A stretch of DNA of 64,000 nt. Origin: Schmidtea nova (lineage: Eukaryota). The DNA lies in assembly GCA_044892505.1 (NCBI GenBank), contig CM097882.1:160518001-160582000 (forward strand). Direction: 5' to 3'. The notes under the pieces were generated by a model that worked only from the letters and a program-made list of their open reading frames with translations, did not search any database and was not told the origin of the DNA. Made by a program: the position numbers and the translations under genes. Positions 1,236 to 61,950 of the stretch are shown here, piece after piece. The stretch's first letter is position 1. Each line of letters opens with the position of its first letter.

Positions 1236-3437
1236 ATAAATTATTTTTTAATTTTTAATTTTTAATTTTTAATTATTTTTATTTATTTATTTTTATCCAG
1301 ACGAATTGCCAACAGTTGGACAACAAGCATCACCAGAAGATTACCCAGTAACAATAAGCCTCAGTTCTCAACTATCACTAGGAAACAGATAGTATTTAAT
1401 CTGAAACAGAAGGACAATCTATTTTTCCACTAAGAATTCACGAGGATCTGACGATCATTTTTAAAGAATTCCAACCCAGCTTTTAATGTAAGGAAGATGA
1501 TTTTTAGAGCATGGGTTAGCGAGACATGCCCTCGTTATCCCATGTGAGGTATTTTGATTTGTATTGTTTTTGTTATTTTATTCTATATTGTTGGGCCCAC
1601 CAAAGATCTAAAAAACACGAAATATATCAATAACAGTTGAAACAAAATAATTACAAAATAACCCATTGGAACATAGAAAGCCTAAGGAAAAAGATAAAAA
1701 CAAATAATTAAGAAAATAAAAAATTACCCAAAGATTAAACTAATCCGAATTTGTTGAGAATAGCCAGACAGGAGATCTAGAATAAAAATATACAAAAAAA
1801 ACGCTTAAAAATTAATAAATAAGAGTACATTTTATTAAATAATTACTAGAAAAAATGAGACCACCGAGCGAGAAAACAGATCTGAAAATGAAATAAAGCA
1901 GAAAATTAATTTAAAATAATTAAACCTACAGTGAAGGCGGCCGAATCCTGATTGGTCGGTTCAACCTAGACAATCAGTATATATACTGATACAAAACTTC
2001 ATTAGTTCATACTATAATTTTGAGATTAATAGTAAAGTAGCAACTTAACCGCGCTTTATTAAACTAGAAACCAAATTAATTGCACAAATTTCACTGAAGA
2101 TTGCTGAAGGAAAATATACAGTAATTATTTTGTTTTTATTGTAAATGTTGCCCCATGATTTCATTATAATTCATTATGCAATTGTTATATCAATATGATA
2201 ATTTGTTATATGCCTTGTTTTATGTTGATTTATAACTTATCATAGATTTTTATGAGCACGTCGGGAGCTATATGCTGCTAGGGTGCAATCCGAGGCTGTA
2301 AAGGCTAAATAGCTAACGAACTGAATGGCTGTAAAATTTTTGTATTACTGAATTGACCATTGACCCGGACTAAATTAGAAAGTGCATAAGCTCAATAAGA
2401 TTTTGAAATATTGATCCACGTCAGGGTCTACTATCTAGATTTGAACCGAAATGTTGAAATTTTTTTCATGTTATTTAATCTTGGTACCGAATTGAGATGA
2501 TACTCCGTATATATTTGACTACGAAAGGGGAGAGTTGTACTGATAAGATACCTAGCGGATAAATTAGCCAAACCGGAACAAGCACCCGTCAGATGATTAT
2601 TTTTGAGATTGACTAAATAAATTCGACTTCAAACGGTCATCAAATAGAATTATATCCAATCCGAAAGACCTTACTGCCACCCAAACTTAGAATAAAGGGG
2701 AGAATATTCCGGTACATAAGAAAACTCCCGAGCAAGGCGAGACAAAATTCAACAATAAAATATAATAATTAAAATTATTTTCAGACAAAATATCCGTTAA
2801 AGAGATGTTCATGATAAATATTCGATATGCTCAGCCAGTGGAGAATCATTGGTGATGGAAAGACGGAAAGCTCAGGCGGAACCGAATACGCGCCAGTCCC
2901 TTCAAAAATCTGCCGTTTGAAATATTGCAGCAGGTGCACCAGAAGATGTGGAAATGGAAGCATGAACTGGACACTGCTTGTCCGTTCACTGTGTGGGACC
3001 ATCCTCGTCACCATGCTTGGTACAGCGGATACGCCAGCTGGCCCATCATTTCGGGCGAGGACTTCAAACCTTGGTTCGTGCTAATACTCGACGAACATGG
3101 ATTTCCTCAGCTAGTGATGTATTGCGGGTTACATTCCAGGAATTGGGCATTACACTCAATACTGCAATTCAGCCGTTACGGGAGGCCCAAAAGGAAAACT
3201 TGAAGATCTAAACTCTCCCGACTCCTTCAAGGCCACCATGCAGGTTCATTTAATCTTCGCATATCGCGGAAAGGCTGGTGGGGAATGAAGTGTTGTTCAA
3301 TAAATGTATTAAATAATGGTGTTCCGTCTAATCAAATTTTCATTTGATTTTCAAATAATCTAATGCTCATTGTAATTTTAACCAAATTTACGTGATGAAT
3401 GAATCGTATCTATTTTATTTTATGCAGAAATTTAAAA

Positions 3438-4009: not shown

Positions 4010-4245
4010 AATACATCAATATACAATCCCCGAGGAACCTGTTGCCAAGGTAAACACACCTCAATATATAGTCCCCGTGGAATATGTTGCTAAGGTTGCT
4101 AAACACACATACGTCAATATAATCCCCGTGGAATATGTTGCCAAGGTAAACACACCAACATACACCATTATATAATCCCCAAGGCAGTTGTTTCTAAGGT
4201 TTACACACGCATAAATATATAATCCCTATGCATATGTTGGTAAGG
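4010..4245. repeat. About 5 diverged tandem units of 45-55 bp
   Basis: Repeated atata(a)tcccc..gg...tgttgccaaggtaaacacac units. Confidence 0.8.
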
Positions 4246-5994
4246 TAAATAAAGGTAGAACTAGTTAGTAAGTAAGGAATTGGTCTGTTTGTAAACTAAG
4301 GGATTGGATTAATTGATATCTAGTTAATAGGAAGAGATAATTGATTGACATATGGAACAATTTTTCTAGTTGGTTAATATATAGAGTCAGTTGGTAACTG
4401 GTAAGTAACTAGATGGTTTTTGATTTGTGGATAGAGTCAGTTGGTATCTGATCAGTTACTAGTCAGTTGTTTTATTTGTGTGTGTAATGAGATTATTAGT
4501 TAGTTGATCGGTTTATTCTTGGTACTTAGATTGATTAATAGACGTTACTTATTATTATTATTAATATTATTATTTTACTTGTTTCCATATTTTCAATTAT
4601 TACGTTTATTTTTAAAAGTTTATGACATTAATCGTTATTTTTTTACTTAGTATACAAATTGCAACAACTCTTGTTTAATAACTAGTTTTATTCTAAATAA
4701 ATTTAATATTTACATATGTTTTATTTACTACATTTATTTGTTGTTATTTGATCATTTCCTTAAATAAGGTCATATTGAAAAACAATTAGATTTGTATTTA
4801 TTAATTTAAAATTTTACTTGTGAAAAAAATTTACTTTGTATTTATTATTTTAAAAAATTTTACTTGTTGGTTAATGTTTAAAAAAAGTTTTTTACATTGA
4901 TTTTAGTGTTAAAAAATTCTACATTAACTTTATTGTTAAAAAAATTTACTTTAAAGAATTTCAAAAATATTTAATTATTCTCACATTTTTCAAATATTAC
5001 ATTAAAAAGTTCATTTAAAACCAATTCATTTTAAAATAATGTCATTAAAACGCACGTGTTTCTTAATTTACTGGTTTTAAAAAAAATTATTTGCTTATAA
5101 TTCTATTTATCTTTAAATTCTTAATTTATTTTTAAAATTCTATCTTTAATTTATTTACTTTACCATTTTTCATAAATCCTTTACAAATTATTTTAAAATT
5201 CTAACTTTAATTTACTTATTATTTCCATGTTTTTTATTTAATGTAACATTTTACTTTATAAATTCTATACAAAAATATTGAGTGAATTATTTACTGAGTT
5301 TGGAAATTCGTATAGATATTATTTACTTTTTTATTTAATTATCATAAATTTATTTAGATTTAATTATTTAGTTTAAAAATTTTTTAAATATTTCCACGTT
5401 TTTTATGTACTTTGCCCTTTTTTACTGAGACTGGCATTTCATGTATAAAATTTTGATTTTTTCATGATTTTAATTTTTTGACCTTTTCTGTTCGCCTTTC
5501 AATTCTCAGTAGATTGGTATAAAAATTATTGAATTCTGACAACTATTTAATTTTTGGAAATTCCCAGACCAAACACTTTTCTTTTGGCAGAATTAAGAAG
5601 AAAATATTACGACAAAACCTTTCTTGAATAAAATTTTGTATTTGAAATTCGATTTGTATTGTTTAATTTTTATTTGGTAAAAAATTTTATTTGTTGATTA
5701 ATTTTTATTTGGTAAAAATTGTATTTGTTAAGACTTTTATTGGTTTGAAAATTTTATTTTGTGAAAAAATTTTAATTTTATATTTAAAAATTTACCAACT
5801 CCGAGATTTCCCAAAATAATTCGTACTTATTTTTAAAATTTTCATATTATGTCATTTCAATTCTGACTTTGCCTTAATTTTAACCTTTTTTATTAAATTT
5901 TAAATATTATGTCATTCTTTTGTTTTTTGTAAAATTCTCCATGTTTTATTGTCTATTTAATTTAACCATTTAAATCTATTTAAATCTACCTAAA

Positions 5995-8119: not shown

Positions 8120-9228
8120 TGTTGAGGTCCAAGATTTTTAGATCTCAACGCGCACTGGTGTACACTATAGTATATAATAATAAAATCAAGTCTTTTGAAA
8201 AATTTATTCAATAACAAAATTTACCAAATTCAAAAATCAAAAGTTATCAATTACGCTTTCAAATCAAAAGTTATCAATTACGCTTTCAAATCTTCACACT
8301 GTTTTATAAAGTTTATTTAAAGGATATTTTTTGCGTGTCCTACTGTGTGCTTGTTATATAATTAAATGTTATTTGTTTTATTTACTCTTTTAAATATGTT
8401 GGACCTTTTTGTACTGTCCTTTAATGTTAATGTTCTCGCAGGATTTCCCTTTGAGAATAATAAGGCGCAATTTTTGGTTGAAAGCAAGTTTCAAAAATTG
8501 TGGGGCAAATTTTAAAAATTTTCACTTCTTTAAATACTAAAGTTTTTCGTACTCGTTATTGAAATAATTAAAATAATTTCATCTAGATATTGAAACAATT
8601 AAAATAATTTCGTTATTGGAACAAAACAATTAAAACAATTTCAAAAATGTTGACTCGCTACCGAAACAAAATAATTAAAATAATTTCCTTTATCTATTTT
8701 TCCATGCTACAATTATGTTGCCCCGATTCTAATATCCGTTGAAATAAAATAATTTCAACATCCATTGAAATAAAATATTTCATTAAAAAGTACATAAATA
8801 TTAATAATAATTTTCTAAATTATATACATTTAAAAGAACTAAAATAATATATCGCATTCCCAACTAAAATAATAATATCCAATGTTGAATGTTCATATCA
8901 AATATTTACACTAGAAATAAAATATATACAAGAAATAATATATCACATTCCCAATAATAATATCAAATGTCGAATGTTAAGGATCAAATATTAAATATCA
9001 AATGTCGAATGTTAATCAAATATTAAATATCAAATGGATGTTGATATCCTGGTTGGTGCTTGGATTGATTGTGCACTGGGTACTGATTGATATTGGGTTC
9101 TGTTTCTTTTTGAATATTGGTTGTATCGACAGGCTCTGTATAAATAATAACTCTGTATTTGTTGCCCCCCACACTATAATTTTCTGATAGGAGGAATGTA
9201 TTGATGGGCTTACCTTCATCATCCAACA
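8120..9228 (-). repeat. 3' LTR (1109 bp)
   Basis: Matches 20953-22060; about 6 substitutions and one 1-bp indel seen by eye. Confidence 0.97.
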
Positions 9229-11122
9229 TTCCTCCCCGGGCCGTCAAAGTAATGTCCTCATTACCCTTGTCACACAATATTAAATCAATTCTTTTCTCTT
9301 TTATTTGAATTGTTGTTTTTCGAAATCCATTTTTTATCACAAGGTTTATCGTCTCCTCGTGCTCAATTTGTCTTCCAAAATGAGTGCAGAGATCTTTTTC
9401 TGAGACATACTTTTTGTCTTTGTCTATTATGAAGTCTGATTCTTCTGGTTCTGTCCAGTCGGCTAACATTTCAACGTTTGGTTCTGGTCCGATATCCTCT
9501 TCCATTATGTTGTATTTATTACTTGTTGATGGTTCTTCACTATCTTCTTCCATTTTGATGTCGTTACTGCTGGTTGAAGGTTCTTCTATGTTTTCATCTG
9601 CTGAGAAATATTCATCATCTATATCACATTCGTCCATTCTTTCATATAGAATATTTTGAATTTTGGGTTCTGCTTTGATTTCTCTAGTTGGAGCGATAAG
9701 TGGTATTTCTTCTTTTATGATCATGAGTTCATCGTCGTCACTGTCCATGAGCTCTTCCATGAATGACTTTTTTGGTTTGTAATGATTGGTTTTTGTTGAT
9801 TCCCCATGGGACGGCTCCATGCCTTCTCCATCTTCATATTCACTTTCTATCTCACCTTCTGCTTCGCTCTCTTTTTCGTTTTCGAATATTGTTTCTAGTT
9901 GTTCTTCTCCTTTTGCTTGTTTCCTTTTAAGAAGTGTTGCGGAATCCCATTTGACAACTTCTTCCCATTTATTTTCTGAGATATCGTAGATAACTTTTAA
10001 TAGCATTGTGGTGATCTTTGTTGAGAATGGTTCTGGTTGTCTCAATATATCATTTAACTTTTTATCTTTATGCCAACTTTTATGGTAATTGATTACCTGG
10101 TAAGCCAAATTTGATATTTTTATTTTTGGTGGGGCCACGTTTTTTACAAAAGAACACATGAATCGATCCTGTGCCATTTCTCTTATGCCCATAATGTTGT
10201 CCAGATCTATCGTCAATAGTTTTAACTTATCTATGATGTTGAATCCAACTATGATCTTTCCATAGAGAATGTTTCGAATTTCATTTAAGGCTTTATATTC
10301 GTCTTCATTTCCAATTATGTTTTCTTTTGTAGATTTAGTTTTTTCCGTGTAGAATTTTTCTACTTTCGTTCTTGGGGTGATGAACTTGTTATACAGAATT
10401 GCTCCTTTTTTGCTTCTGATACAAATTTCCACTGGTCTGAGATTTTTGTTTATATCTTGAACTACTTTTATATCCACAATTACAGTTAATGAATGCCTTT
10501 CTTCTGTCGTTAATTCTTGATTCGTGAATGATATCTTCTGGTTGATCATATCTTCATTAATTTGTAGGATTGAATGTATTGGGTTTAATTTTATGAACGG
10601 ATTTGGGATTGTCGGGATATATAGCACTTCGATTGCTATCACACATGGTAGGTTATTCATCTGCACTGTCAGCTCATTGAAATCGTTTGACATGCTTCTG
10701 TCTTTTCTTATTAACTTGATAACTGCTGAACAGTTGCTTGTGACAATTAACGGGATTTTATTTTGACATATTGCAACTTCTGTTTTTGTCATGTGGAATA
10801 TTAATCTGTGAGGGATTCTCTTGTTTTCTGCAACTTCTTTGTCGACGTTTTGGTATTTGTCGAAGGTTCCAATAAGCTCTTTGAGTTTCACTCTTCGGGC
10901 CTCATTGAATTTTATCAGATGCATTTCCCGTTCTTCTATTTCGACTTTCATGTCGTTTGGGATACATATTTGATTTGGGAAACTGCGAATTGTAATTGGG
11001 GTTCCATCAGTACATATCTTGTTCTGTAGATTTTTGTAAAAACTCATGTTGAGTTTGTTTATAAAACAAGTGTATTTCTGGTAGGTTCTTGATTGATTGA
11101 AATGAGGTTGATTTTGATTCAT
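9023..11122 (-). CDS. 699-aa accessory ORF: DEDDh (ISG20/REX4-like) exonuclease-like domain with degenerate catalytic motifs, acidic region, C-terminus encoded in U3
   Basis: VIVDIKVV...VEICIRSKKGAILYNKFITP...FYTEKT...EIRNILYGKIIVGFNI..KLKLL resembles REX4-family VAIDCEMV...G.VLYDKYVKP...RT.VSGI...LL.GRILVGH.L..DL..L. Intact ATG-to-stop ORF. Confidence 0.75.
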   Translation of the reverse strand: MNQNQPHFNQSRTYQKYTCFINKLNMSFYKNLQNKICTDGTPITIRSFPNQICIPNDMKVEIEEREMHLIKFNEARRVKLKELIGTFDKYQNVDKEVAENKRIPHRLIFHMTKTEVAICQNKIPLIVTSNCSAVIKLIRKDRSMSNDFNELTVQMNNLPCVIAIEVLYIPTIPNPFIKLNPIHSILQINEDMINQKISFTNQELTTEERHSLTVIVDIKVVQDINKNLRPVEICIRSKKGAILYNKFITPRTKVEKFYTEKTKSTKENIIGNEDEYKALNEIRNILYGKIIVGFNIIDKLKLLTIDLDNIMGIREMAQDRFMCSFVKNVAPPKIKISNLAYQVINYHKSWHKDKKLNDILRQPEPFSTKITTMLLKVIYDISENKWEEVVKWDSATLLKRKQAKGEEQLETIFENEKESEAEGEIESEYEDGEGMEPSHGESTKTNHYKPKKSFMEELMDSDDDELMIIKEEIPLIAPTREIKAEPKIQNILYERMDECDIDDEYFSADENIEEPSTSSNDIKMEEDSEEPSTSNKYNIMEEDIGPEPNVEMLADWTEPEESDFIIDKDKKYVSEKDLCTHFGRQIEHEETINLVIKNGFRKTTIQIKEKRIDLILCDKGNEDITLTARGGMLDDEGKPINTFLLSENYSVGGNKYRVIIYTEPVDTTNIQKETEPNINQYPVHNQSKHQPGYQHPFDI
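9229..9240 (-). promoter_or_regulatory. Polypurine tract
   Basis: Minus strand GGGGAGGAA immediately precedes the 3' LTR start TGTTGG. Confidence 0.85.
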
Positions 11123-11149
11123 CTTTGTTTTTGATTGGTATCGAATTGA

Positions 11150-11430
11150 TTTCTTGATATATTGATTTGAGAGATGATTAATAGGGTTTTGACGGTTTGA
11201 CAGAGATATAATTGAATATATTGAGATATTTGGGTAATTGTCGTAACGATTCGATTGGTCTATAGAATTGACGAGATTGATTGGGTATTTTGTATAGAGA
11301 TAATTGGTAGGGTTTTTTGATTGTTTGTTGTGACAGTTTAAAAAAGAGATGATTGTATTTATTGAGATTTTTGAATGGTTGTTGCAATGATTTGATTGGT
11401 GTGTAGAATTGACGAGATTGATTGGGTTTT
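11150..11430. repeat. Diverged tandem duplication of about 141 bp in the pol-ORF4 spacer
   Basis: gattggt.t.tagaattgacgagattgattgggt occurs at 11253-11286 and 11394-11427. Confidence 0.75.
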
Positions 11431-11587
11431 CGGAATTTGTTGGAACTTGCTTTGTTTTGCTCGTGTATTCTTTTCTAAAAATAAAGGATAAAGTTTTTTG
11501 TTTAAGGCGTATTGTCGGTTTAACCTTATACGCTATATAAATACGAATATATATATGATTTTAATTATTATTATTGACCAAAACGTA

Positions 11588-12375
11588 TTATACCAATGTG
11601 GATTTTGTATATTCACCTGGTATATATTTGCCCAAATGGAAATGTCCTGGTACATTTCTGACCAGTCGGCTCCGATACCGCTGCCTTTTCCACTTGTACT
11701 TTTTATAAATTTGTACGCTAGTTATTAAAGCTAAAACTGCTAATGCTATTATTGATGTTGTGATGACATAATAAGGCCAATGTGGCTTTTTATCCTCTTT
11801 ACGAAATGCTTGTAGTTCCTCTAAGTTATGTATCACTATTGGTCTTTCTTGCCTTATTTTGATAGGTTCTTGTTTTTGTTTTTTGGCATTGTATTGTTTT
11901 TGGAATTTGGCTATTCCAGTGCTTGTTGGTATTTCGTTTGTATGTGGTGTGGTATTTAGTATATTATCTGATGTCGTTGTTGTGCTTTTTATTCTATCGA
12001 GTGTTTTTGTTATGTTATGGTTTTTTGTTATATTCTTGGGTAATTGTTCTGTTTTTATTTTTTTGCATCTCCATGTTGTTGTATCTGTGTTTCTCTGTAT
12101 GCAGATTCTGTATATTGTATTAGGTGCTAGTTTTGTGAAATTAATATAGTTTCCTCTTTCGATTTCGTTGGTTGTTCTGTCGTCTTTTCCTTTTATCATC
12201 TTTGGGTTTTTCCCGTTCGTTGTTTGCATGTATAAATCAATTACTCCTCTATTTATGATAAATGCTCTAACTTCGTTTGTTGATATTTTTATTAATACTT
12301 TGTCAAATTCTATTGTTTCGGTTGAGCCAACAAATGTTATGATTGTTAAGAAGATAGCCGATATTATTAGTTTGT
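11588..12375 (-). other. Type-I membrane protein module fused after integrase (signal peptide, FN3-like domain, Thr-rich stalk, TM, basic tail)
   Basis: KLIISAIFLTIITFVGS (12325-12375); NFTKLAPNTIYRICIQ resembles the FN3 L.P.T.Y.ICV motif; STTTTS stalk; YYVITTSIIALAVLALITSVQIY (about 11704-11773) followed by KKYKWKRQRYR. Confidence 0.75.
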
Positions 12376-15300
12376 TATGAGATCTTAGATTATACTTGTG
12401 AGGTTTATCTATCGTGACCTCGGCTTCCGCCAACTTGCATCTGTTGACATGTACTACTATTGGATCCTCGTTTTTATGTTTTTGTAAGTGTAAATTCTCA
12501 TTTATTACTTTTACTACTTCATATGGGCCTTTATATGGTCTTGCTAATTTTGTTGTTTTTCCCTTTCCTACTTGTGGTGACATAAGTCTAACCTTATCAC
12601 CTACTTTAAAGTTGTGTGGTTTACTATTTTTGTCGTAGTCGGCTTTGTACTGTTCTTGTCTATATTTGACTTTTAGATTGGCTACTTTATACACTTCTTG
12701 CAGTTTTTCCTGCATTAGTGTGACATAATCTGGTGCATCTAAATATTGTGATACTCGAGGTTCAAATATTGTATCTATTGGTGTTGCTGGTTCTCTTAAA
12801 AACATTAAATAATACGGTGAATACCCTGTTGTTTCGTTTGGAGTGATATTATGAATGTATGTGCATTGACTTATGTATTCGTCCCAATCATTTTGATTTT
12901 TTCCTACAGAAACAGCTAGTCTGCTTAGTAATGTCCCATTAAATCTTTCTACTAGTCCATCAGTTTGAGGGTGATACGCTGTTGTGTTGATCTTTTGCAT
13001 GTTAAAAATATTAGCTACTCGTTTTATTAATTCACTAGTAAAATTTGTTCCTTTATCTGTTAATAATCTTTTGGGTGTGCCTATCTTGAAAATAATTTTT
13101 TCTATAAGCAATTTAGCAACTGTTTCTGCTGTTTCGTCTTTTGTTGGAAATGCTTCTGCCCATCTAGTAAAATAATCACTAAATACTAGTATATGTTTAT
13201 TCCCATTAATTGTAGTAGGTAATTTACATAGAAAATCCATTGCACATAGTTCCATTGGTGATGTCGTTGCTGGAATGGGATGTAACGGCGCTTTTGTTTT
13301 TGTACCTGTATTTTTTCTTGTTGCACATATTGTACACGCGTTACACCATCTCTTAACATCTTTCTTTAATTCTTCCCAGTAATATTTTTGTAATAATCTA
13401 CTTGCTGTCTTTCTAGATGATAAGTGACCTCCTAATGCTCCATCGTGATATTGTAGTAGGAGTATTTGTCTTAATTTCTGAGGTACTACTATTAGTTGCT
13501 TACCATTGAAATCTTCTATTACTACTAATTTCTTTGATATTTTATACTTTGAATTGTTTTCTTTTCTGATTTCATTTTTTATTTTACTGATCTCTGGGTC
13601 TTTCATCTGTTCCTCATATATATCGATTGGTTTTTCTGCTACTAGTGCAAATATTTCAAGTGCTCCTAATTCTGGTATTCTTGATAGTGTATCTGCGTTT
13701 TTATTTATTCTACCTGGTTTATATATAATTTTTAGGTGCATGTCTTGTATTTTCATTGCCCATTTAAATAATCTACTTGATGTATCTTTATGTTTCCATA
13801 AGCCTTCTAATGGTTTATGGTCAGTTCTTATTATCACTTCAGTCCCATATATGTATGGTTTGAATTGTTTTAGGGCGAATACTATTGCGTAACATTCTTT
13901 TTCTATTGTTGAATACCTCAGCTGTGCTCCTTTTAATGTTTTACTGGCATATGCTATTACGTAATCTTTCCCTTTTTCTTCTTCTTGGCCTAAGACTGCT
14001 CCTACGGCTTTCCCGCTGGCATCCGTCATTACTATAAACTGTTTTTCGAAATCTGGGTATCTTAACACTGGTGCTGTTATCAATCTTTCTTTTAGTTTAT
14101 TGAATGCTTCTTGATGTTCCTTTGTCCACTTCTTTTGTATCTTGTTAACTTTGCTGTTAATTTCTTGTACTATTAACACATTTTTGCATTCTCCTTTTGT
14201 TCTAATTCCCTTTGTTAGTTCTATTATCGGTGATGCTATCTTTGCATAATCTTGTATGAATTTACGATAGTACCCTGTTAGACCTAAAAACCCTTGTACT
14301 TGTTGTACTGTTTTTGGTATTGGGAATTTCTTTACAACTTCTATTTTTTCTGGATTTGGTTTTATCCCTTCTACTGTAACTATATGCCCTAGAAATAACG
14401 CCGAAGGTTCTGCCCATTTACACTTAGTTGGTTTAATTTTAATTTTTGCTTTTCTTAGTCTCTCGAGTACATTTGTTATATCTTTTAAGTGTTCCTCAAA
14501 TGTTTTTGATGATATTAGTATATCATCCATGTAAACTGCGCAATGTTGTACATTTACTAATATTGTGTTCATTAGGCGCTGAAATGTAGCTGGTGCGTTA
14601 GTTAACCCGAAAGGTAATCGTGTGTACTCATATAAACCATCCTCGATAACAAATGCTGTTTTTTCCGCATCCCCTTCCTCCATTTGAATTTGCATATATC
14701 CCTTATTTGCGTCAATAACTGAAAAATACTTAGCATCCCTAAGTTTATCGTATTGCTCTTGTGCTTTTGGGAATGGGTATGAATCTTTTACTGTTACATC
14801 ATTTAATTTACGATAGTCAATGCACATTCTTATTTCTCCGTCTTTCTTTTTAACGGGTACAATGGGTGATGCCCACTGTGAAAAACTCTGTTTTATTACA
14901 CCTGCATCGTTTAGTTCTTTGATTTGTCGTTTTATTTCCTCTCTTAACTTGTATGGTACGCTGTATGGTCTTTGTTTTATTGGTCTCGCATTACCTGTAT
15001 CTATTACATGTTTGATTATATCGGTATCTCCTAGATCAAATTCGTGTTTTGCAAAAACATCACTATATTTATCTATCAATGTTTGTAGTTGTGCTTGTTG
15101 TGTTATTGTTAAGTATTCATTATTAATTTTTACTTTGTCATATGATTTTATATTATTTATCTTACTAGGTTCGACTACTCCCTTGCCGTTATTATTCATC
15201 ACGCTTATCTCACTGACTTCGTACGTTTTTTCTAATTCACCTTTGAATAATTTTCCCAATTTCGTACCTTTGTGTATTTTAACATTACTTTTTTCATAAT

Positions 15301-15463
15301 TTGCTATTCTCAATGGTATTATTCCCTTTCTCGGAATTACGCATTCATTGGTTAGCATTATATTCTGATTTTGTATAATTGCCGTTTCTGGCTCAAAAAT
15401 AAAAGTGTCCTCACTTTTGATGTTAACTTTTAAGGGAATTATATGATCGCATTCATATTCCAA
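11588..15463 (-). CDS. pol: Pol segment: RT, RNase H, integrase (HHCC, core, GPY/F), then a C-terminal signal/FN3-like/TM module
   Basis: WASPIVPVKKKDG, MCIDYRKLN, LPFGLTNAPATFQ, YMDDILI; TDASG, EKEC, TDHKPL; H-GGH..C..C; MDF, TDKGTNF, GLVERFN; YKGPYEV. Continues ORF2 in frame across one TGA. Confidence 0.97.
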   Translation of the reverse strand: MEYECDHIIPLKVNIKSEDTFIFEPETAIIQNQNIMLTNECVIPRKGIIPLRIANYEKSNVKIHKGTKLGKLFKGELEKTYEVSEISVMNNNGKGVVEPSKINNIKSYDKVKINNEYLTITQQAQLQTLIDKYSDVFAKHEFDLGDTDIIKHVIDTGNARPIKQRPYSVPYKLREEIKRQIKELNDAGVIKQSFSQWASPIVPVKKKDGEIRMCIDYRKLNDVTVKDSYPFPKAQEQYDKLRDAKYFSVIDANKGYMQIQMEEGDAEKTAFVIEDGLYEYTRLPFGLTNAPATFQRLMNTILVNVQHCAVYMDDILISSKTFEEHLKDITNVLERLRKAKIKIKPTKCKWAEPSALFLGHIVTVEGIKPNPEKIEVVKKFPIPKTVQQVQGFLGLTGYYRKFIQDYAKIASPIIELTKGIRTKGECKNVLIVQEINSKVNKIQKKWTKEHQEAFNKLKERLITAPVLRYPDFEKQFIVMTDASGKAVGAVLGQEEEKGKDYVIAYASKTLKGAQLRYSTIEKECYAIVFALKQFKPYIYGTEVIIRTDHKPLEGLWKHKDTSSRLFKWAMKIQDMHLKIIYKPGRINKNADTLSRIPELGALEIFALVAEKPIDIYEEQMKDPEISKIKNEIRKENNSKYKISKKLVVIEDFNGKQLIVVPQKLRQILLLQYHDGALGGHLSSRKTASRLLQKYYWEELKKDVKRWCNACTICATRKNTGTKTKAPLHPIPATTSPMELCAMDFLCKLPTTINGNKHILVFSDYFTRWAEAFPTKDETAETVAKLLIEKIIFKIGTPKRLLTDKGTNFTSELIKRVANIFNMQKINTTAYHPQTDGLVERFNGTLLSRLAVSVGKNQNDWDEYISQCTYIHNITPNETTGYSPYYLMFLREPATPIDTIFEPRVSQYLDAPDYVTLMQEKLQEVYKVANLKVKYRQEQYKADYDKNSKPHNFKVGDKVRLMSPQVGKGKTTKLARPYKGPYEVVKVINENLHLQKHKNEDPIVVHVNRCKLAEAEVTIDKPHKYNLRSHNKLIISAIFLTIITFVGSTETIEFDKVLIKISTNEVRAFIINRGVIDLYMQTTNGKNPKMIKGKDDRTTNEIERGNYINFTKLAPNTIYRICIQRNTDTTTWRCKKIKTEQLPKNITKNHNITKTLDRIKSTTTTSDNILNTTPHTNEIPTSTGIAKFQKQYNAKKQKQEPIKIRQERPIVIHNLEELQAFRKEDKKPHWPYYVITTSIIALAVLALITSVQIYKKYKWKRQRYRSRLVRNVPGHFHLGKYIPGEYTKSTLV

Positions 15464-15519
15464 TTCAAATGCTTCTAATGCAACAACTTCTGTGAACTTG
15501 GATTTATGTTTAATTGCTT

Positions 15520-15850
15520 TTCTCTTTATCGTATTATCTGTTAAATCTATAATTCAATTTTCTAACTTGTTGAGTATATCGATTCCCAATATACATATGC
15601 TATTACATTCTTGCACCACTTTAAATATGTGGTTTATTACCTGTTCTGGTGTTTCGACTATTAGTTCTATGTCTCCCTTTAGTGGAATACGATGTGCTGA
15701 TAACGATACTACTTTATCCGTTGTGCTCATAATATTTCTTTTTTGATCATCTGTCAGTTGATCTTCTCTAATTAAGGATGTTGCTGCTCCTGTATCTACT
15801 AATGCATTTATGATTATATTGTTTATAATTATTCTAAGTCTTGGTCTTGC
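15520..15850 (-). other. Retropepsin aspartic protease domain (TGA at 15554-15556 near its C-terminus)
   Basis: RPRLRIIINNIIINALVDTGAATSLI...CILGIDILNKLEN*IIDLTDNTI. Confidence 0.92.
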
Positions 15851-18800
15851 TTCGTTTGCTGCATCTAATCGTTCCATTGTTTCGACTTCTAAGCTATAAC
15901 AACCATATATCTTTTTAGGTTCACAATAACAATTCTTGTTTTCTCTAGGAATTTTGATTTCTATATTTTCTTGTAGCTCTTTTAGTTGTTCTCTTTGGTT
16001 TTCATATAGTCCTTGTTGTGGTACATTTCCTCCATGTGATATATGCGCTTTAATTATTTCCTCATCGTTTTCATCATCTACCAGTAATTGCCTTTCTTCA
16101 CTCCTTTGGACTTTTATTAAACGTATTTCCTTGTCGTGTTTCGCCGTAATAAGATATTTAGCTATAAATGGGCACAAACATGCTAATAATTTATATGAAT
16201 TTCCAAATACTTGTTTTAGCTGTCTCAGTGATACTAGAGAAGAACATATCATTTTTAGTAATGCAACCGTATAATATATACCTAAGATTGTAGAAAACAT
16301 GTTTCCAAGGACTGCAAAGTATCCCCATATGCTATATAGTACTTTATATGCTACTTTTTTGAAGTATTCTTTTGATAATAACACATCAAAGTTGTAATTT
16401 CCTCCGTAACTTCCTTCGATAACTCTGTTAACCATTATTGAAAGTACTCTTTCTTTTTCGTTTGGAAATAGCATGTGTTTTCTTGCACTTTCTATAGCTT
16501 CTCTCGTATATATACCATTACTGTCCATATCGTTGATTTCTTTAAACTCTAATCTTTTTTCTAGCTCTATGAGTTCTAATTTGAGTGGTTTCATTGTCTC
16601 TTTTCTATCTGACATAGATATCCACATTTCGTCATTTATTTTGTATAATGGGTCTAATAGGTTAGTGCATTTTTCTATTTTTCTCGGTATATATGTTTTT
16701 TCTGTTAATATTCTAGTAATTGGTTGAAGGTATACCCTTTCTCCTTTATATATTACCGGTAATTCATTAGCGCACTGATTATTTGTTGCTAACGATACAC
16801 TAACAGGTTTACATTGAAATGTCTGTATCACTTCTCCTACTATCCTTGCAAATGTTCCTTCTTCTGAGAAGATTATTGGTGCCATTAAATCTGGGTTTGT
16901 TACCGCCACTGCCATTTTTGTCCTCAATATTTCTCTGTTGAGTTTGCAATCGCTCATAATTGTTGATTGATATACTTTATCTAATTGTACTAGTTGGTTA
17001 TGATAGAAAAAATCGATTTTATTGTTGAAGTATGATGCAAGTTTGACGTCGAATTTATTTACTTTTTGTTTTGCATCTTTGACTTCCTCTTTGCTTATGT
17101 ATATCCCTTCATAATTAGTTTGTATTATTTCCTTACCACATTTTACACTTTTCCTTTTACTAACAAACCTCATTGCTTCGTTTTCAGATTCTGACATATA
17201 TATTGTTGGTGTATCTTTTTCTTGTACAATTGTTGTTTTCCTTTTTTGATCTCTCACCCTTTTTGAGTCTACTTCTGTGAACTGTTTTCCTTTGATTTCC
17301 CTAAATTTTAATGATTTTAATTTTGTTAACTGACAATCGTATTTATCTATTTTGTATATTAGCATTGATTCTCCTGTATCGCAATAAGATTCTTCTAATG
17401 TACAAAATTTGTATATCATCATTTTCTTTGAGCTGCTGTCGAATGATGCTTTGAACTTTCTCAGTTCTACCATGTAGTGTCTCCTTACTACAACATTACT
17501 CAGTTTTTCGCCCCATATTGTATATTCTCCTCCTTCACAATATCCTCCTTTTGATGTCCATCCCACGACATTTACATCTTGTCTCATTTTTGCCCCTATC
17601 CTTGCTTCTAGTTCTATTCCTTTATGACCGCTATATTTTACTTTCTTTGTTTTAAATGCATCTTCACACTCTATTGGCGACAATATTACTGCTTCGGGTG
17701 TCCACGTAGGTTTTAACACTGTTCTTGCCCCAACATGACATATATATGCTTCCTCCTGATACTTTACTATGCACTCTTTAGCCTCTGTATGAATAAAGTC
17801 TGATTCTTGATAAACATGGAATCTTTGAGGCTCTGACATGATTAATTTAGTTGGATTTGCTTCAGGGCAATTTTCAACATCCAACAGTGAGTATTTTTGT
17901 CCCCACTTTGGATTTTGACAATCGTATGCTACCATTGCATTGCCCCCCTTGATTAAATCTAATAACAAAGTGATTATGACTATTACTATGGAGGTTATCG
18001 ATTTACTCTCTGTCTTTGGTTTTACTGTTGCTTTCTTTATTAATTGTTTTATTACATCATCTGTATCACTCTCTTTATTCGTCGTATCTTTATCATATAA
18101 TACTTTCCATCCTCCTTTCTTTTTTATCCATGGTATTGCCTCTACTTTCAATCTTTTAAACATCATTGTTGCTACTTTTTCTAATTGCTCTTTTGGATTT
18201 TCCTTTAGGAGCTTTTTATATCTTGCGGCCAAGTATGCCATGGCCGTTATTATTTTATCTTTATCTATCCCTGTATTAAACAGGATTTTTAACACTGTTT
18301 TTTCATTTGCTTCCTCTGTAGCTAGTTTTTTAGTATCCTTTTTAATTAACATCATCCTTTCAGTTATATTTTCAATTAGTACTGTTGGCTTTGTTTCTGG
18401 AAATAGCTTAATATTTATTGCTTTTATTACTTCTTTTATTTTGTTTACGTCCTTATTATCGTCTTGATACTCTGATTGTTTATGTTTATGTTGATTTGCA
18501 ATCTCTCTTAATCGTTCTGCTGTCTTCCTATTCTCCGATTTTTCTATTATTTCTGATTTTCGAGGTCTTCCTCTACCTCGTTTTGATGTTTCTGCATCTT
18601 TTGTTTTTGCTTCCTCAGCTATTCTTTCTATTGTTTCTTGTAAGTTGCTATACTTTTCATCTATAGGTTTAAATATAATTTCTTCATCCATTACTGATTT
18701 CTTTGTTTCGCTAGGTGATTTATCCCATAGCCTAAATAATCTATCAAAATCGTTTTCTTCATTTATACTCAGCTCAACCGACGGTACTGGCGTCACTATT

Positions 18801-19000
18801 TCATCGATCATTTGTTTTTCTACTGTGGCTACCACAATATTATCACTTACTGGGTTTATCCCATAATCGATTAAGTACTCGTCACTTAATAATTCTATTC
18901 CGTTAAAATATAATTTTATTACATCTTTCTCTCCTATGGTTCCTGGCCATTTGGCTCTTACCATTCGTTTTAATTTGCTCACTTTAGTGCAAGGATGCAT
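15554..19000 (-). CDS. Middle polyprotein segment: ubiquitin-like, AT-hook, Bcl-2-like, signal peptide, chuvirus-G/gB-like glycoprotein, TM, aspartic protease
   Basis: See sub-features. Protease ALVDTGAATSLI ... ILGIDIL at the C-terminus. Confidence 0.92.
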   Translation of the reverse strand: MHPCTKVSKLKRMVRAKWPGTIGEKDVIKLYFNGIELLSDEYLIDYGINPVSDNIVVATVEKQMIDEIVTPVPSVELSINEENDFDRLFRLWDKSPSETKKSVMDEEIIFKPIDEKYSNLQETIERIAEEAKTKDAETSKRGRGRPRKSEIIEKSENRKTAERLREIANQHKHKQSEYQDDNKDVNKIKEVIKAINIKLFPETKPTVLIENITERMMLIKKDTKKLATEEANEKTVLKILFNTGIDKDKIITAMAYLAARYKKLLKENPKEQLEKVATMMFKRLKVEAIPWIKKKGGWKVLYDKDTTNKESDTDDVIKQLIKKATVKPKTESKSITSIVIVIITLLLDLIKGGNAMVAYDCQNPKWGQKYSLLDVENCPEANPTKLIMSEPQRFHVYQESDFIHTEAKECIVKYQEEAYICHVGARTVLKPTWTPEAVILSPIECEDAFKTKKVKYSGHKGIELEARIGAKMRQDVNVVGWTSKGGYCEGGEYTIWGEKLSNVVVRRHYMVELRKFKASFDSSSKKMMIYKFCTLEESYCDTGESMLIYKIDKYDCQLTKLKSLKFREIKGKQFTEVDSKRVRDQKRKTTIVQEKDTPTIYMSESENEAMRFVSKRKSVKCGKEIIQTNYEGIYISKEEVKDAKQKVNKFDVKLASYFNNKIDFFYHNQLVQLDKVYQSTIMSDCKLNREILRTKMAVAVTNPDLMAPIIFSEEGTFARIVGEVIQTFQCKPVSVSLATNNQCANELPVIYKGERVYLQPITRILTEKTYIPRKIEKCTNLLDPLYKINDEMWISMSDRKETMKPLKLELIELEKRLEFKEINDMDSNGIYTREAIESARKHMLFPNEKERVLSIMVNRVIEGSYGGNYNFDVLLSKEYFKKVAYKVLYSIWGYFAVLGNMFSTILGIYYTVALLKMICSSLVSLRQLKQVFGNSYKLLACLCPFIAKYLITAKHDKEIRLIKVQRSEERQLLVDDENDEEIIKAHISHGGNVPQQGLYENQREQLKELQENIEIKIPRENKNCYCEPKKIYGCYSLEVETMERLDAANEARPRLRIIINNIIINALVDTGAATSLIREDQLTDDQKRNIMSTTDKVVSLSAHRIPLKGDIELIVETPEQVINHIFKVVQECNSICILGIDILNKLEN
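16140..17935 (-). other. env: Envelope glycoprotein domain, chuvirus-G / herpes-gB-like (class III fusogen-like)
   Basis: Preceded by a hydrophobic signal (SITSIVIVIITLLLDLIKGGNA). Starts VAYDC..YSLLDVENCP. Cys-rich ectodomain with CG..I.QTNYEGIYI, FARIVGEVIQTFQCKPV, CANELPVIYKG.RVYLQPITRIL. Hydrophobic TM region VLYSIWGYFAVLG...LLKMIC. Confidence 0.8.
18092..18523 (-). other. Bcl-2-like helical domain
   Basis: BH1-like ILFNTGIDKDKIITAMAYLAA and BH2-like EAIPWIKKKGGWKVL (W at 18107-18109) with Bcl-2-like spacing, followed by a hydrophobic anchor. Confidence 0.65.
18554..18583 (-). other. AT-hook motif
   Basis: KRGRGRPRKS. Confidence 0.8.
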
Positions 19001-19054
19001 CTTTTGTTTAATACTAAAAAATTAATTATCATTTGATTCAATCGTTACATTTAG
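18824..19054 (-). other. Ubiquitin-like domain spanning the gag stop codon
   Basis: LNVTIESNDN*FFSIKQKMHPCTKVSKLKRMV...IKLYFNGIELLSDEYLIDYGI matches the Ub pattern (V.P.TKV..LK; L.F.G..L.D...L.DY.I). Confidence 0.7.
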
Positions 19055-20704
19055 TGTTTCATGCAATTTTTCATTTTTTCTTATATATTCTCCATAACAT
19101 TTCAGCATCTCTTTTATTTCTATTTCTAATTCAAATACTCTCGTTACATTTTGTCTCTTTACCATCATTGGTATTAAATTTCTAAGTCTCTCTAAATCAA
19201 TCCCATTAACCTGTATTTTATTGATTACTCTTAATGTTTCATTGTCATCAAACGGTTGCTTATGCAATACCTCTTTAAATTCCTCTATTAATTCTTTTTG
19301 TCTATTTTCTTCTGTAAGAAATATTTCATCTGCTTCTCTAATTTCCTTTAACTCATCATTATCAATATCTACCTCATTTGTAAAGGTGCTAAATTCATTT
19401 ATAGACATTTCAAGTTTTCTCTCAATAAGTCTTCCATATTGAGTTTTAAATTCTTTTAGTTCCTCTCTTAATATATTTATTTCTTTATTTGCTGATTCAA
19501 GCTCAGCACTATTTACCTGTTTTATCTCAGGCTCATTTTTAAATCTTACTCTTATTGGTGAATCTGCTCGTGGTTTATTACATACCTTTGCTAGGTGACC
19601 ATACTTTTGGCAATTATAACATTTTATTTGTCCATTAAAATTCACTTTATCTCTACCATCATTATTATAAGTATTTCGCCTCACTGGGCTATCTTGCCTA
19701 TTTCTCGAATTATCTCTATATCTATTATCTCTTCTATTATATTCGAAGCGACTATCTCTATTATTTTTATTATATCCACTGTAACTGTTTCTGTTATTAC
19801 CAGAACGACTATCTCTAAAATTATCTCTGTTGTCTCTATCATTATCTCTATCAAAACGATTGTCTCTAAAACTGTCTCTATTATTATTTCTTTGATAACT
19901 ATCTTTAAAATTATTTCTATTTCTATTATCGAAATTTTTATTTCCTGGACTATTAAACCTTCCCCTGTTTTCAGGTGATTGGCTTCTATTAGGACTAAAT
20001 TTTCTTCTATTATTAACAAATTTCAAGTATAATTGTTTCATTTCTTCCCAGGGAATACTGTCATCCTTATTTCTCAACTCAGGTTTTACCTCGGGTTGTT
20101 TTTCAACTTCTACAGCATCTACCTCTGGTTTAAATCTATCTCTTTGTATTGCTTCAATGCGTTTTGCCTTTTGAACTAACTCATTTAAGTCTTCATACTC
20201 AATTGTAATTAATGCTTTGTATAAGTATTTTTGGATGCCGTTCCAAAACTGATCCTCAATTAATTTACTAGTGTGATCTCCGGCACCAAATGCCTTTTTT
20301 GCTAATTCTGTTATCGTGTATATATATTCACCTACTGATTCTCTGGCTCCTTGGTATCTACTTCTAGATTTTTGAACATTTATTTTTTGTAAGTCTCGAT
20401 CTATTACTATTTCTTTTCTAAGGTTTGTAACTAACTCTTGATAATTAATGCCTTTACATGCTAAATTATTGTATGCCTGTAATGCGTATCCCTTTAAGTA
20501 TAATGGGATTCGTTGTTTTAATTCATTTGTTTTCCATCCGCAAGCTTCTGCATACTGTGCGATTTCGGCAAAAAAGTCGTCGAACTTTTCAGGGTCTCCT
20601 TTATATGATTCTATTGGTAATGTTTTTATAAAATTATGGCTGCTTATGTTGTCTGTATTACTGTTACTTCCACTATTGCTGCTGCCTGTACTATTATTAC
20701 TCAT
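19022..20704 (-). CDS. gag: Gag: capsid domain, R/D/N-rich region, CCHC zinc knuckle, coiled-coil extension
   Basis: YKGDPEKFDDFF..AEACGW; RYQGARESVGEY; CYNCQKYGHLAKVC. First ATG at 20704 (the track start at 20737 is TTG). Confidence 0.93.
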   Translation of the reverse strand: MSNNSTGSSNSGSNSNTDNISSHNFIKTLPIESYKGDPEKFDDFFAEIAQYAEACGWKTNELKQRIPLYLKGYALQAYNNLACKGINYQELVTNLRKEIVIDRDLQKINVQKSRSRYQGARESVGEYIYTITELAKKAFGAGDHTSKLIEDQFWNGIQKYLYKALITIEYEDLNELVQKAKRIEAIQRDRFKPEVDAVEVEKQPEVKPELRNKDDSIPWEEMKQLYLKFVNNRRKFSPNRSQSPENRGRFNSPGNKNFDNRNRNNFKDSYQRNNNRDSFRDNRFDRDNDRDNRDNFRDSRSGNNRNSYSGYNKNNRDSRFEYNRRDNRYRDNSRNRQDSPVRRNTYNNDGRDKVNFNGQIKCYNCQKYGHLAKVCNKPRADSPIRVRFKNEPEIKQVNSAELESANKEINILREELKEFKTQYGRLIERKLEMSINEFSTFTNEVDIDNDELKEIREADEIFLTEENRQKELIEEFKEVLHKQPFDDNETLRVINKIQVNGIDLERLRNLIPMMVKRQNVTRVFELEIEIKEMLKCYGEYIRKNEKLHETLNVTIESNDN

Positions 20705-49000: not shown

Positions 49001-51879
49001 GATGATACAGCAGCACCCATTGATCCATTATCATTCTTGGAACATACAAAAGAAAATGACACTCTCTCTTTGCAATGCCATTTGACTGTTGAGGTGAAGA
49101 TTGCTAATCATCCAGAAGGTAAGTGGTCCCTATAATATGATCTAGGTAGAATGTTGTATATCATTTAATTGTTTTTATATTACAGACGACCATCAAGAAG
49201 CCGATATTGAGGATCCATCCCAGTGGTTCGCCCTCAACGATGCGTTAAGAATTCAGTTGGTGAAAAGAGGTTCACGACAAATCATGGACGTACAATTTCC
49301 ACTAGATGATAAAGGAAGGAAATTTAGTTCCCATCACTACAAACCAAATCTTGTGAATGGAGAAAGTGTGACACGTTCTTGGCTAGTTTATTCGAAAAGT
49401 AAGAACGTCGTATTCTGTTTCTCGTCTAAACTCTTCACGAAAGAATCGGTGGCAATAACAAACAGTGGTTGTTGTGATTGGAAAAATATGTCCGCTATTC
49501 TCTCAAGTCATGAAGTGTCGCCAACCCACATAAAAGCTTATATGCAATGGAAGGAGTTAGAAGTTCGTTTGCGTACAGAAAATACTATTGATGCAGCCAA
49601 TCAGCGTGTCGTAAAACAAGAAGTCGAACACTGGAGACAAGTATTGGAAAGACTCATCGGACTCGTTAGAGTACACGCAGTTCAAAACTTAGCATTTCGA
49701 GGTTCGTCCGATAAGCTTTTTACGCCCAACAATGATAACTTTCTTCAATTTGTTGAATACTTAGGAAGCTTTGATCCTGTAATGAAAGAACACATCCGGC
49801 GCATCAAAAGTGATGAAGTTCATGTGCACTATGCGGGCAAGAATATTCAAAATGAAGTCATTGGATTGTTGGCAAAAAGGTGAGAGACGAAATTCTTAGT
49901 GAAGCCAAAAATGCAAAATACTTCTCAATAATCTTTGATTGTACATCTGACGTTAGTCATGTTGAACAAATAACTTTTGTGATTCGATTTGTGTCCTTGT
50001 GCGAAGCTCAAGAAGAACGTGTTGTAAATTTTGCTGTTCACGAACATTTTCTGTAATATGAGGTTGCATCTAATACAACTGGGGCTGGAATGACGAATTT
50101 AATTGTGAAGAAGATCGAGGAAATGGGCTTTGTTTTGACTAATCTCAGACGGCAAGGTTACGACAACGGCTCTAACATGAAAGGAAAGCATAATGGCGTA
50201 CAGAAGAAAATTCTTGATTTAAATCCTCGAGCATTTTATATCCCTTACACTGTTCATTCACTGAACCTTGTCGTCAACGATGCTGCACATTCCTGCACAG
50301 AAGCTGTCAAATCTTTTGGAGTCGTACAGGCGGTGTAAGTGTTTTTTTCTGCGTCCACACATTGCTGGAAGGTTCTCATGAATAATGTGTCGGGTCTAAC
50401 TGTCAAACCTCTCAGTGAAACGAGGTGGTCAAGTAGAGTAAATGCCGTTCGTGTTTTACGTTATCAAATTCGAGAAGTCTAGGATGCCCTTGTCTCCATT
50501 ATCGAAGATACGACTCTAACTGGAGTGACTGCCTCACAAACTCGTGCAGATGGTCAAGGAATTGCATTTCAGCTGAGTTGCTTCAAATTTGTTGTTAGTG
50601 TGGTCGTTTGGTATAACATCCTTTACGAGGTCAACTTTGCGAACAAACTGCTTCAATCTCAATCTGTCGACATGTCCGAAGCTGTCACTCAGCTGAATAA
50701 AACCATTCAATATCTCGTAAACTATCGCTCTGACGACAGCTTTCTCAAAACTCTTGAAGAGGCAGAAGACTAAGCAAAAGATCTGGAGATAGACCCAACA
50801 TTTCCTGGTGTGACGCGAGTTCTGGATCGTACGAAAAAACGAATGTTTCAGTATGAAGCGGCTGATGATCAAATATCAGATCCAAGACAGTCGTTCAAGT
50901 GTCATTTTTTCTTCGTGGTGTTAGACGCTGCTATCAACTCTATGGAAGAGCGCTTCACGCTCTTGAATGCTCATCACACACTGTTTGGGTTTCTCAGTTG
51001 TATTGGAGGAGACTATCAGTCCGCCACCTTTCTTGAAAAATGCCGATCATTAGAAAAAGCTCTGACTGACGACAGTGACAACGACATTGATGTCCTCCGT
51101 CTTTTTGAAGAAATAAAATGCCTACAACATCGAATTCAAGAGAGAAAAACACCAAAGCAGTTGCTTGAATTTATCTTTGCTAATCAACTGTGCAGTGTAT
51201 TACCAAATTTGTCTGTGGCTTTGTGCATCATGCTTACTATCCTAGTATCTGTTGCAGCAGGAGAATCCAGCTTCTCAAAACTGAAAATAATAAAGAATTA
51301 CTTGCGACCTACAATGGCAGAAGATCATTTATCGGGCTTGGCTATTCTCTCCATTGAGAAAGAAATGGCTTCCAAGGTGGACATCGGCGAACTTGCTCGG
51401 AAATTTGCCTCAATAAAAATAAGGCACATTCCATTCTTTTCTGATTGAACTATTGTCTGTACGGTTTGTCTGTATTTCAACAATTACATCGCACACATTC
51501 TCTGACCATGTATTTTTTCAGTAGACGGTGTAGAATAAATAGAATTGTAGACGGGCAGTAGAAAAGATAATTACAACAACAAATATTAAGAGAAACATGA
51601 AAGATGAACGCACAGTGATTTAAACAATCCAAAATGAACTTTACATATAGGCTATAGGGCGGCAAATTTGCGTTTTGCCTAGGGCGGCAAAAACCCACCA
51701 GCCGGCCACGGTAACTAGTCACTGAATAAATACTTTATTTGAACTATGTACTTACTTATAATTAATTTTTTATGAGAAATTTAAAATTTGGAACGTATTT
51801 TCCAAATTTAATACAAAAGTGGGTTCACAGTGCGCGGTTTCGGTTTGCGCGCTGTTTTTTTCAGAACGAGGGATTACCG
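46048..51879 (+). mobile_element. pogo/Tigger transposon, degenerate transposase about 46504-48198, with a hAT inserted near its 3' end
   Basis: CENP-B HTH (RKRNILTLKVKLAIVKEIENG), FSACKGWFERFKRR, VFNADETGLFWK, ILLILDNTPSH. Termini CAGTAATCC / GGATTACCG. Confidence 0.88.
48299..51710 (+). mobile_element. hAT transposon (ZMYM-like/TTF-zinc finger and hAT dimerisation domains), disrupted transposase about 48824-51448
   Basis: TIR cggggccggct / agccggccacg. TSD GTAACTAG (48291-48298, 51711-51718). RSWLVYSKSKNVVFCF, LAFRG, QGYDNGSNMKG, ETRWSSR, ESSFSKLKIIKNYLR. Confidence 0.95.
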
Positions 51880-61324: not shown

Positions 61325-61950
61325 ATGGAATTAAGAAACGATGCAGTGTTTCAAATTGTTGGACCGAGCGGGAGTGGGAAAACTTTATTTGTTGGTAAAT
61401 TATTACAATCAAAATTATTCAAATCAAAGTTTAATAAAATTTATTGGCATTGGGGAGCAGATGAAGAACATGGAATGACTCAAGATCAATTTTGTAAAAT
61501 AAAAATGACAATCATAAAAGGTTTCGATAAAAATTGTTCATCTAGATTAAGAGAAGGGGATGTGATTACTATTGATGATTTGTATCAAGAGGCAAATAAA
61601 GAGAAGGATTTTAATAATTTATTTACAAAAGTCGCTAGACATAAAGGAGTTGCAGTTATTTTTTTTACTCAGAATTTATTTCATCAGGGTGGCGGTCATT
61701 GAACGCAGAATTTGAATGTTCAATATCTTGTTGTTTTTGAAAATCCTAGAGATGCAACAGTTATTGATTTTCTTGAAAGACAAGAATTCCCTATTAATCA
61801 CAATTTCTTGATTGATGCATTATAAGATGCTACAAAAGTTCCTCATGATATGTTTTTCTTGATTTCACACAACAATGTTGTGATGATTTATGAGTTAGAA
61901 CTGATATTTTCAGCAAGGAAGGAGCCATGGTTTACAAAAAAAGTTTTTGA
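61325..61950 (+). pseudogene. Maverick/Polinton A32/FtsK-like packaging ATPase
   Basis: GPSGSGKT Walker A, ITIDD Walker B, ARHKG.AVIFFTQNLF, YLVVFENPRD. In-frame stops after 61702. Confidence 0.92.

Follow-up and report, generated by a model that had tools for sequence, protein, structure and literature searches.

A probable pseudo-nuclease with an ISG20-like fold encoded by the last gene of a Ty3/gypsy element in Schmidtea nova

An accessory gene with a degenerate exonuclease fold

We analysed a 64,000-nucleotide (nt) window of Schmidtea nova DNA (GenBank assembly GCA_044892505.1, contig CM097882.1, positions 160,518,001 to 160,582,000 of the forward strand), whose minus strand carries a 13.9 kb Ty3/gypsy long terminal repeat (LTR) retrotransposon. 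The element has LTRs with TG...CA ends, a flanking 4-bp target-site duplication (ATGG), a primer-binding site, a polypurine tract (PPT) and the gene order protease, reverse transcriptase, RNase H, integrase. Its 5' LTR (20953..22060, 1,108 nt) and 3' LTR (8120..9228, 1,109 nt) are 99.4% identical, differing by six mismatches and one gap over 1,109 nt; this near-identity, the TG...CA ends and the intact duplication indicate a recent insertion. The last open reading frame (ORF) of the element, at 9023..11122 on the minus strand, is intact and encodes 699 amino acids (aa), a stop-free run with a chance probability of ~5e-24 at the composition of the ORF. A sequence-only reading of the window had proposed that this accessory ORF encodes a catalytically dead ISG20/REX4-like exonuclease with a long acidic tract and runs through the PPT into U3; the intact frame, the fold class, the acidic tract and the overlap were all confirmed.

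Four parts can be distinguished in the protein: a cupin or double-stranded beta-helix (DSBH) domain (residues ~21-170, 10613..11062), an ISG20/ISG20L2-like DEDDh fold (~208-393, 9944..10501), an acidic, fast-evolving linker (400-565, 9428..9925; 54 Asp/Glu vs. 15 Lys/Arg), and a C-terminal region (~566-670, 9113..9427) that crosses the PPT into the start of U3. Pfam returned no family for the whole accessory ORF. The nuclease fold was recognized by phmmer (1WLJ, expectation value (E) 5.9e-5), by the profile of its family against ISG20L2 (E 6e-32) and by language-model features (0.95 to RNase_T clusters). A model of residues 21-405, built from the 63-row alignment described below, has a predicted local distance difference test score (pLDDT) of 92 and a predicted template modelling score of 0.89, suggesting that the two domains pack as one unit. 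Its best fold match is ISG20L2 (7YW5; Z 18.5, root-mean-square deviation (rmsd) 2.2, 157 residues aligned), followed by ISG20 (Z 18.3, rmsd 2.6, 160 aligned), with the next fold at Z 14.5; the predicted domain is a DnaQ-like fold of the DEDDh class, nearest ISG20/ISG20L2. Human ISG20 and ISG20L2 and plant SDN1 (Z 14.1) are the nearest solved folds and the nearest sequences to residues 208-393, and unlike the accessory ORF they are active, cellular and without a DSBH domain. A full-length model from three sequences reached a pLDDT of 31 and gave no reliable structure for the linker or the C-terminal region.

DEDDh nucleases carry five catalytic residues in the motifs ExoI, ExoII and ExoIII, and the accessory ORF does not have this set. 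ExoI reads D217-I-K219 and ExoII G293-F-N-I-I-D-K299, as the sequence-only reading had noticed; ExoIII, which it did not discuss, is also lost (F366 and T371, or T372 in the HHalign register, again a Thr). Four of the five catalytic columns (D217, K219, K299, F366, T371) are replaced and D217 alone is kept. Judged from these residues, the nuclease domain is probably catalytically inactive.

The sequence-only reading had missed the N-terminal domain. Residues 21-170 match a cupin profile (E 6e-5), and in the predicted model they form a DSBH for which cupins and 2-oxoglutarate oxygenases are tied as fold matches (Z 9.3-10.9); the best are a prolyl hydroxylase (Z 10.9, rmsd 3.1, 143 aligned) and a cupin (Z 10.5, rmsd 2.7, 97 aligned). 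No metal-binding His/Asp triad is conserved in the alignment, nor is any HxD/E motif.

Live and dead members of one family

The family search covered 1.84 billion representatives at E <= 0.001 and returned 63 matches. One repetitive false match (P0012) was removed, and the other 62 were aligned with the query; 16 of the 63 rows (fragments, and two proteins with several domains) do not cover every catalytic column, which leaves 47 scorable. All five catalytic residues, with Asp or Glu accepted at ExoII, are present in 29 of the 47, two or fewer in 18, and three or four in none. Every intact row has the ExoIII His (29/29). The 18 dead rows, query included, divide into 11 that keep none of the five residues, six that keep one and one that keeps two. 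An intact active site in most scorable members is a feature of the family that the sequence-only reading did not anticipate. The DSBH plus DEDDh two-domain unit defines the family, for which we found no name.

Comparing the catalytic positions across relatives recovered the same D-K-K-F-T pattern in two close relatives, P0001 and P0002. These share 63% and 53% identity with the query in the nuclease fold and 28-29% in the linker, and both are chimeric, partial gene models. Identity to the query falls to 17-25% in the other dead rows, which nevertheless retain the core of the fold. A tree of the nuclease domain needs two changes of activity, reduced to one when the catalytic columns are removed (weak support, 75), and four, at least two of them forced, are needed on a rapidly built DSBH tree (39 rows, eight short ones left out). 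Depending on the tree, activity may thus have been lost independently one to four times. One family member, P0014, combines a degenerate nuclease domain with a C-terminal RING finger.

No loci of P0001 or P0002 were found in viral or metagenome contigs. A scan with 10 intact members yielded 16 short loci, 15 of which come from two assemblies and are thus not independent; by tblastn, none of the 16 extends to reverse transcriptase or integrase. In L012 a retroviral-type protease lies upstream of the homologue. A PPT-like junction resembling that of the window is present in 5 of the 16 loci, once in a truncated copy and in four full-length relatives 475-896 nt past the stop of the ORF. Since the junction lies beyond the stop, at least some relatives appear to be the last genes of LTR elements without a U3 overlap. 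At the ends of the ORFs in L003, L005 and L006, purine runs with TG were candidates for the PPT, but were rejected in favour of a better junction further downstream. A short hairpin-like inverted repeat stands just ahead of the PPT-like junction in L003 (2753-2801) and also in L005, L006 and L007, and is common to these otherwise divergent elements. L014 holds on one contig, in a row, a dead copy (49-1434), an intact copy (1729-3018) and an ORF with a ubiquitin domain (4038-4625), and L015 carries the end of the same dead copy. In five pairs of intact members the ratio of nonsynonymous to synonymous substitution (dN/dS) is 0.05-0.13, with dS near saturation.

In the window, the accessory ORF enters the 3' LTR by 206 nt, corresponding to 68 residues and the stop, and the PPT (9229..9237) falls within codons translated A-R-G-G-M. 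The chance of 68 stop-free codons in U3 is ~0.002 at the composition of the whole LTR and 0.01 at that of the local sequence. The overlapped 206 nt have a coding-like GC content of 38%, compared with 15-33% in later 100-nt bins of the LTR. The one-base gap between the LTRs falls in the overlapped part, where the 3' LTR stays in frame, and no indel is present there among the differences listed from four DNA runs. P0002 has similar residues over the same junction, suggesting that the overlap predates this copy; with the four full-length relatives stopping short of their junctions, the overlap appears specific to this lineage.

In lentiviruses, nef is the last ORF and lies across the PPT and U3. 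The parallel with nef drawn by the sequence-only reading holds for position and not otherwise: no search found any likeness in sequence or fold, and the relatives checked have no overlap. We also considered whether the U3-coded end is the family's terminal beta-hairpin motif, which had been spotted by eye in 13 hand-picked family tails and holds for most of them when each is left out in turn. This was rejected, as 565 of 928 scored shuffles matched the motif as well as the tail of this protein did. A search with the C-terminal region returned no shorter homologues.

Possible roles of the dead domain

The most likely explanation of the accessory ORF is an old pseudo-nuclease under selection rather than a decaying relic, and readings in which the protein is selected and non-catalytic are, taken together, probable. 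Within them we favour, at a probability of roughly 0.45, a pseudo-nuclease that binds RNA, leaves it uncut and acts as its shield or chaperone. A captured ISG20/REX4-class 3'-5' exonuclease would have been joined behind a cupin/DSBH domain and become a retroelement accessory gene. Its chemistry would have been lost long ago in this lineage, the rigid two-domain fold being retained by selection as a binding module. The RNA bound would probably be transcribed from the element itself or consist of small RNAs that target such transcripts, and the acidic tail could act as a flexible regulatory or partner-binding arm. We infer that the ORF is expressed from its own RNA, that its product binds RNA and that the element benefits.

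This reading draws on the retained fold, on the second ExoI column, which is Lys or Arg in 11 of the 18 dead rows, and on precedent, and it is by analogy with precedent that RNA would be the partner. Exuperantia, EXD1, Maelstrom and Egalitarian belong to other DEDD branches than the ISG20 class. They likewise have an exonuclease fold without the catalytic set (Exuperantia is a fold match at Z 10.6), although they are host genes and the accessory ORF is encoded by a mobile element. Exuperantia has an RNA-binding role, and RNase II pseudo-nucleases, Egalitarian and PML PXL are further pseudo-nuclease precedents, at the level of abstracts. EXD1 and Maelstrom are cellular DEDD pseudo-nucleases that bind RNA, according to the available text of two papers (PMC5408684, PMC7968707).

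Conservation also speaks for this reading: residues P55, N56, E165, P250, R251, D274, G312, R314 and W386 are kept in 94-100% of dead rows, and a wider set across both domains in 87-100%, although these figures are inflated because the rows were found with a dead query. Several observations weigh against the RNA-binding reading. Four non-catalytic pocket columns (232, 263, 295, 296), conserved in live rows, are mostly lost in dead rows, including the query, which makes it doubtful that the former active site still holds anything in the manner of a substrate. The charge of the nuclease domain has a median of +2.5 in dead rows vs. +3 in live rows (p 0.78; +7 in this protein), and on this ground we discarded a gain of positive charge in the dead domains. 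Neither the charges nor the drifted pocket lends support to nucleic-acid binding, and the binding or decoy role put forward by the sequence-only reading is still a proposal.

The direct evidence from variants for selection on the accessory ORF is also weak. Four DNA runs from one study contain a deep form near the window sequence and shallow pieces ~10% diverged, and the counts rest on the 40 of 330 differences that were listed, 19 of them in the accessory ORF. Among these, codons 1-400 have six silent and five replacement differences (ratio of replacement to silent differences per site (pN/pS) 0.2-0.33, p 0.011-0.062), codons 401-630 none and five, and codons 631-699 one and two, giving seven and twelve over the whole ORF (pN/pS 0.41-0.67, p 0.06-0.27); pol has five and four. 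The indels listed in the ORF are one in-frame loss of 3 nt and one 2-nt frameshift at ~1/10 depth in one of the four runs. These variants are weakly consistent with constraint on the folded part. Neutral evolution among copies had been named as grounds for giving up the pseudo-nuclease; across the family, conservation argues against simple decay, and the accessory ORF has kept its fold and lost its catalytic set with signs of selection, although its own codon-level support is weak.

A possible alternative is a pseudo-nuclease selected for protein contacts, a decoy or adaptor. It would engage proteins that partner a host 3' exonuclease or an active member of the family, and the acidic tract would mimic nucleic acid. 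Such a role would fit the drift of the pocket columns alongside the retention, in both domains, of residues that are not part of the catalytic set, and dead domains that are no more basic than live ones. Dead and intact copies stand in tandem in L014, with the end of the same dead copy in L015, and the element in the window also encodes Bcl-2-like and ubiquitin-like modules. Human ISG20 restricts LINE-1 when overexpressed, according to the available text of PMC4441479. However, this element holds a dead copy only, and the kept residues may be merely structural.

It is unlikely that the ORF is a decaying passenger, in which case a formerly active exonuclease gene would be drifting and would owe its open frame solely to the youth of the element. 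Whole-ORF pN/pS is not significantly below 1, the listed linker differences are all replacements, the frameshift occurs at minority depth, and both close relatives are known only as chimeric, partial gene models. Drift should nevertheless yield intermediates with three or four catalytic residues, and the family has none; the same four replacements recur in three proteins 53-63% identical with the domain intact; and the dead-copy ends of L014 and L015 have a dN/dS of 0.09, measured over the last 90 codons alone, mostly tail. We consider it slightly more improbable that the protein continues to cut, using an active site that has been rearranged or replaced by another. The available text of PMC7968707 terms Maelstrom an endoribonuclease although its DEDD residues are missing, and here D217 is retained and three acids (D298, E315, E364) lie close to the lost sites. 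D298, however, is absent from P0001 and P0002, all five residues are gone in 11 of the 18 dead rows, and the dead rows as a whole have not acquired an invariant Cys/His set. Least probable is that selection acts on the DSBH domain, for ligand sensing or an activity that needs no metal, and that the nuclease fold is kept just as its structural support: P55, N56, K59, R65 and E165 are at least as conserved in dead as in live rows and the 2-oxoglutarate oxygenase matches span the whole domain, but no HxD/E...H set is conserved, H110 is the sole well-kept His (40 of 47 rows), and the ESM Atlas gave no usable stand-alone DSBH match, a result neutral as to presence or absence.

Extending the selected pseudo-nuclease to the whole family is more speculative, and we hold the following to be doubtful: invertebrate envelope-bearing retroelements would carry a DSBH-DEDDh accessory family in active trimmer and pseudo-nuclease forms, sometimes adjacent, and the dead form would serve in counter-defence, keeping the host from trimming the 3' ends of retroelement RNA or silencing it through small RNAs, as an invertebrate counterpart of a retroviral accessory gene. 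The family bears on how invertebrate retroelements survive PIWI-interacting RNA and exonuclease defences, and to our knowledge few element-encoded suppressors of such defences have been found. The natural occurrence of one fold in matched live and dead forms offers a comparison that separates a nuclease role from a non-catalytic surface role.

Known relatives and the rest of the window

Exonuclease ORFs in LTR elements are already known from bdelloid rotifers. According to the available text of PMC5408684, Juno and Vesta LTR retrotransposons and Terminons likewise carry a DnaQ-like 3'-5' exonuclease as an extra ORF after pol; this ORF3 is RNase D-like DEDDy, has its catalytic residues intact and replaces env. 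Its role there is putative too, and the DEDD to DEED change of ExoII type is also common in intact members of the present family. The accessory ORF differs in being ISG20-class DEDDh with four of five residues lost, in carrying an acidic tail as well as a fused DSBH domain, and in coexisting with an env. It does not have the intact DEDDy motif, and its intact relatives have the ExoIII His.

The giant planarian gypsy elements Burro/GYPSM1 share the order gag, ubiquitin/SUMO-like (PF11976), Bcl-2-like, mononegavirus-like envelope, protease and pol (available text of PMC6431247). Compared by description, this order is present in the window, with the ubiquitin-like and Bcl-2-like matches under Pfam cut-offs. 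Burro is ~30 kb with a single gag-to-protease polyprotein of ~4,900 aa, whereas this element is 13.9 kb and has gag as a separate ORF. No MATH, BIR or ankyrin domain is among the Pfam results for this element, and the available text of that review does not mention an exonuclease ORF in Burro. The same gene order and envelope class are described for recent, multi-copy GAG-ENV-POL errantiviruses with a gB-type env in nematodes, bryozoans and flatworms (available text of PMC13524379); here too a gB/chuvirus-like fusion protein sits between gag and pol. The main text of PMC13524379 has no match for exonuclease, DEDD, Bcl or accessory, and in its seven supplements exonuclease, DEDD, Bcl-2 and a 7-residue motif from the envelope of this element are likewise all without a match. 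In the literature covered (full-text search, PMC13524379 and the available text of PMC11410931, a scope outside which lie the primary Burro paper, a nematode endogenous retrovirus paper and repeat libraries), no ISG20-class, DSBH-fused or dead exonuclease ORF is described for LTR elements, and no description of a DSBH and ISG20-like pairing turned up. A compact Burro-like element widens the known complexity of accessory genes.

The rest of the element also reads on the minus strand. A primer-binding-site-like sequence (20932..20950) begins with TGG two bases inside the 5' LTR and is followed by gag (19022..20836), with a CCHC zinc knuckle, whose stop lies 21 nt ahead of the ATG of ORF2 (19000-19024). 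ORF2 (15554..19000) encodes a weak ubiquitin/SUMO-like start (PF11976, E 0.068, under the cut-off), a Bcl-2-like domain (E 1.4e-5 and 2.5e-6, also under the Pfam cut-off), a Monjiviricetes (gB-type) fusion glycoprotein (PF24664, E 4e-89) and an aspartic protease (E 1.6e-7). An AT-hook-like motif lies beside the Bcl-2-like and ubiquitin/SUMO-like parts, ahead of the envelope, as in Burro (17900-19000). ORF2 and pol are in one frame with a single TGA between them (15553-15556), an arrangement that suggests readthrough or splicing.

Pol (11588..15553) comprises reverse transcriptase, RNase H, integrase and an in-frame tail that resembles a membrane protein. Its start, ahead of reverse transcriptase (15100-15553), has a weak Spuma_A9PTase match (E 2.4e-5) and no dUTPase match in Pfam; it may be the dUTPase-like region noted for Burro. 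The tail (11591-12370) opens with a hydrophobic stretch; a beta-rich part and then one rich in Thr separate this from a second hydrophobic stretch, after which the tail ends in basic residues. A similar outline is seen in ORFs upstream of the homologue in L001 and L012; the tail has no Pfam match and no BLAST similarity to the upstream membrane-protein ORF of L001. Between pol and the accessory ORF lies a 465-nt spacer (11123..11587) with six CCAAT boxes, partly from one duplicated block, where 1.5 are expected; 2 of 1000 shuffles reach six. On its sequence, the spacer is a candidate internal promoter. Upstream of the nine relatives checked there is no CCAAT cluster (0-1 box each), and Rfam has no match within the element.

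Elsewhere in the window are fragments that we take, by eye, to be a Polinton-type polymerase region (22012-23769), a Penelope GIY-YIG end (33961-34868), a Tc1/mariner transposase (38342-39178), a hAT transposase (49146-51448) and a packaging ATPase (61304-61702). A near-perfect 203-bp palindrome with a 1-nt spacer lies at 42084-42490.

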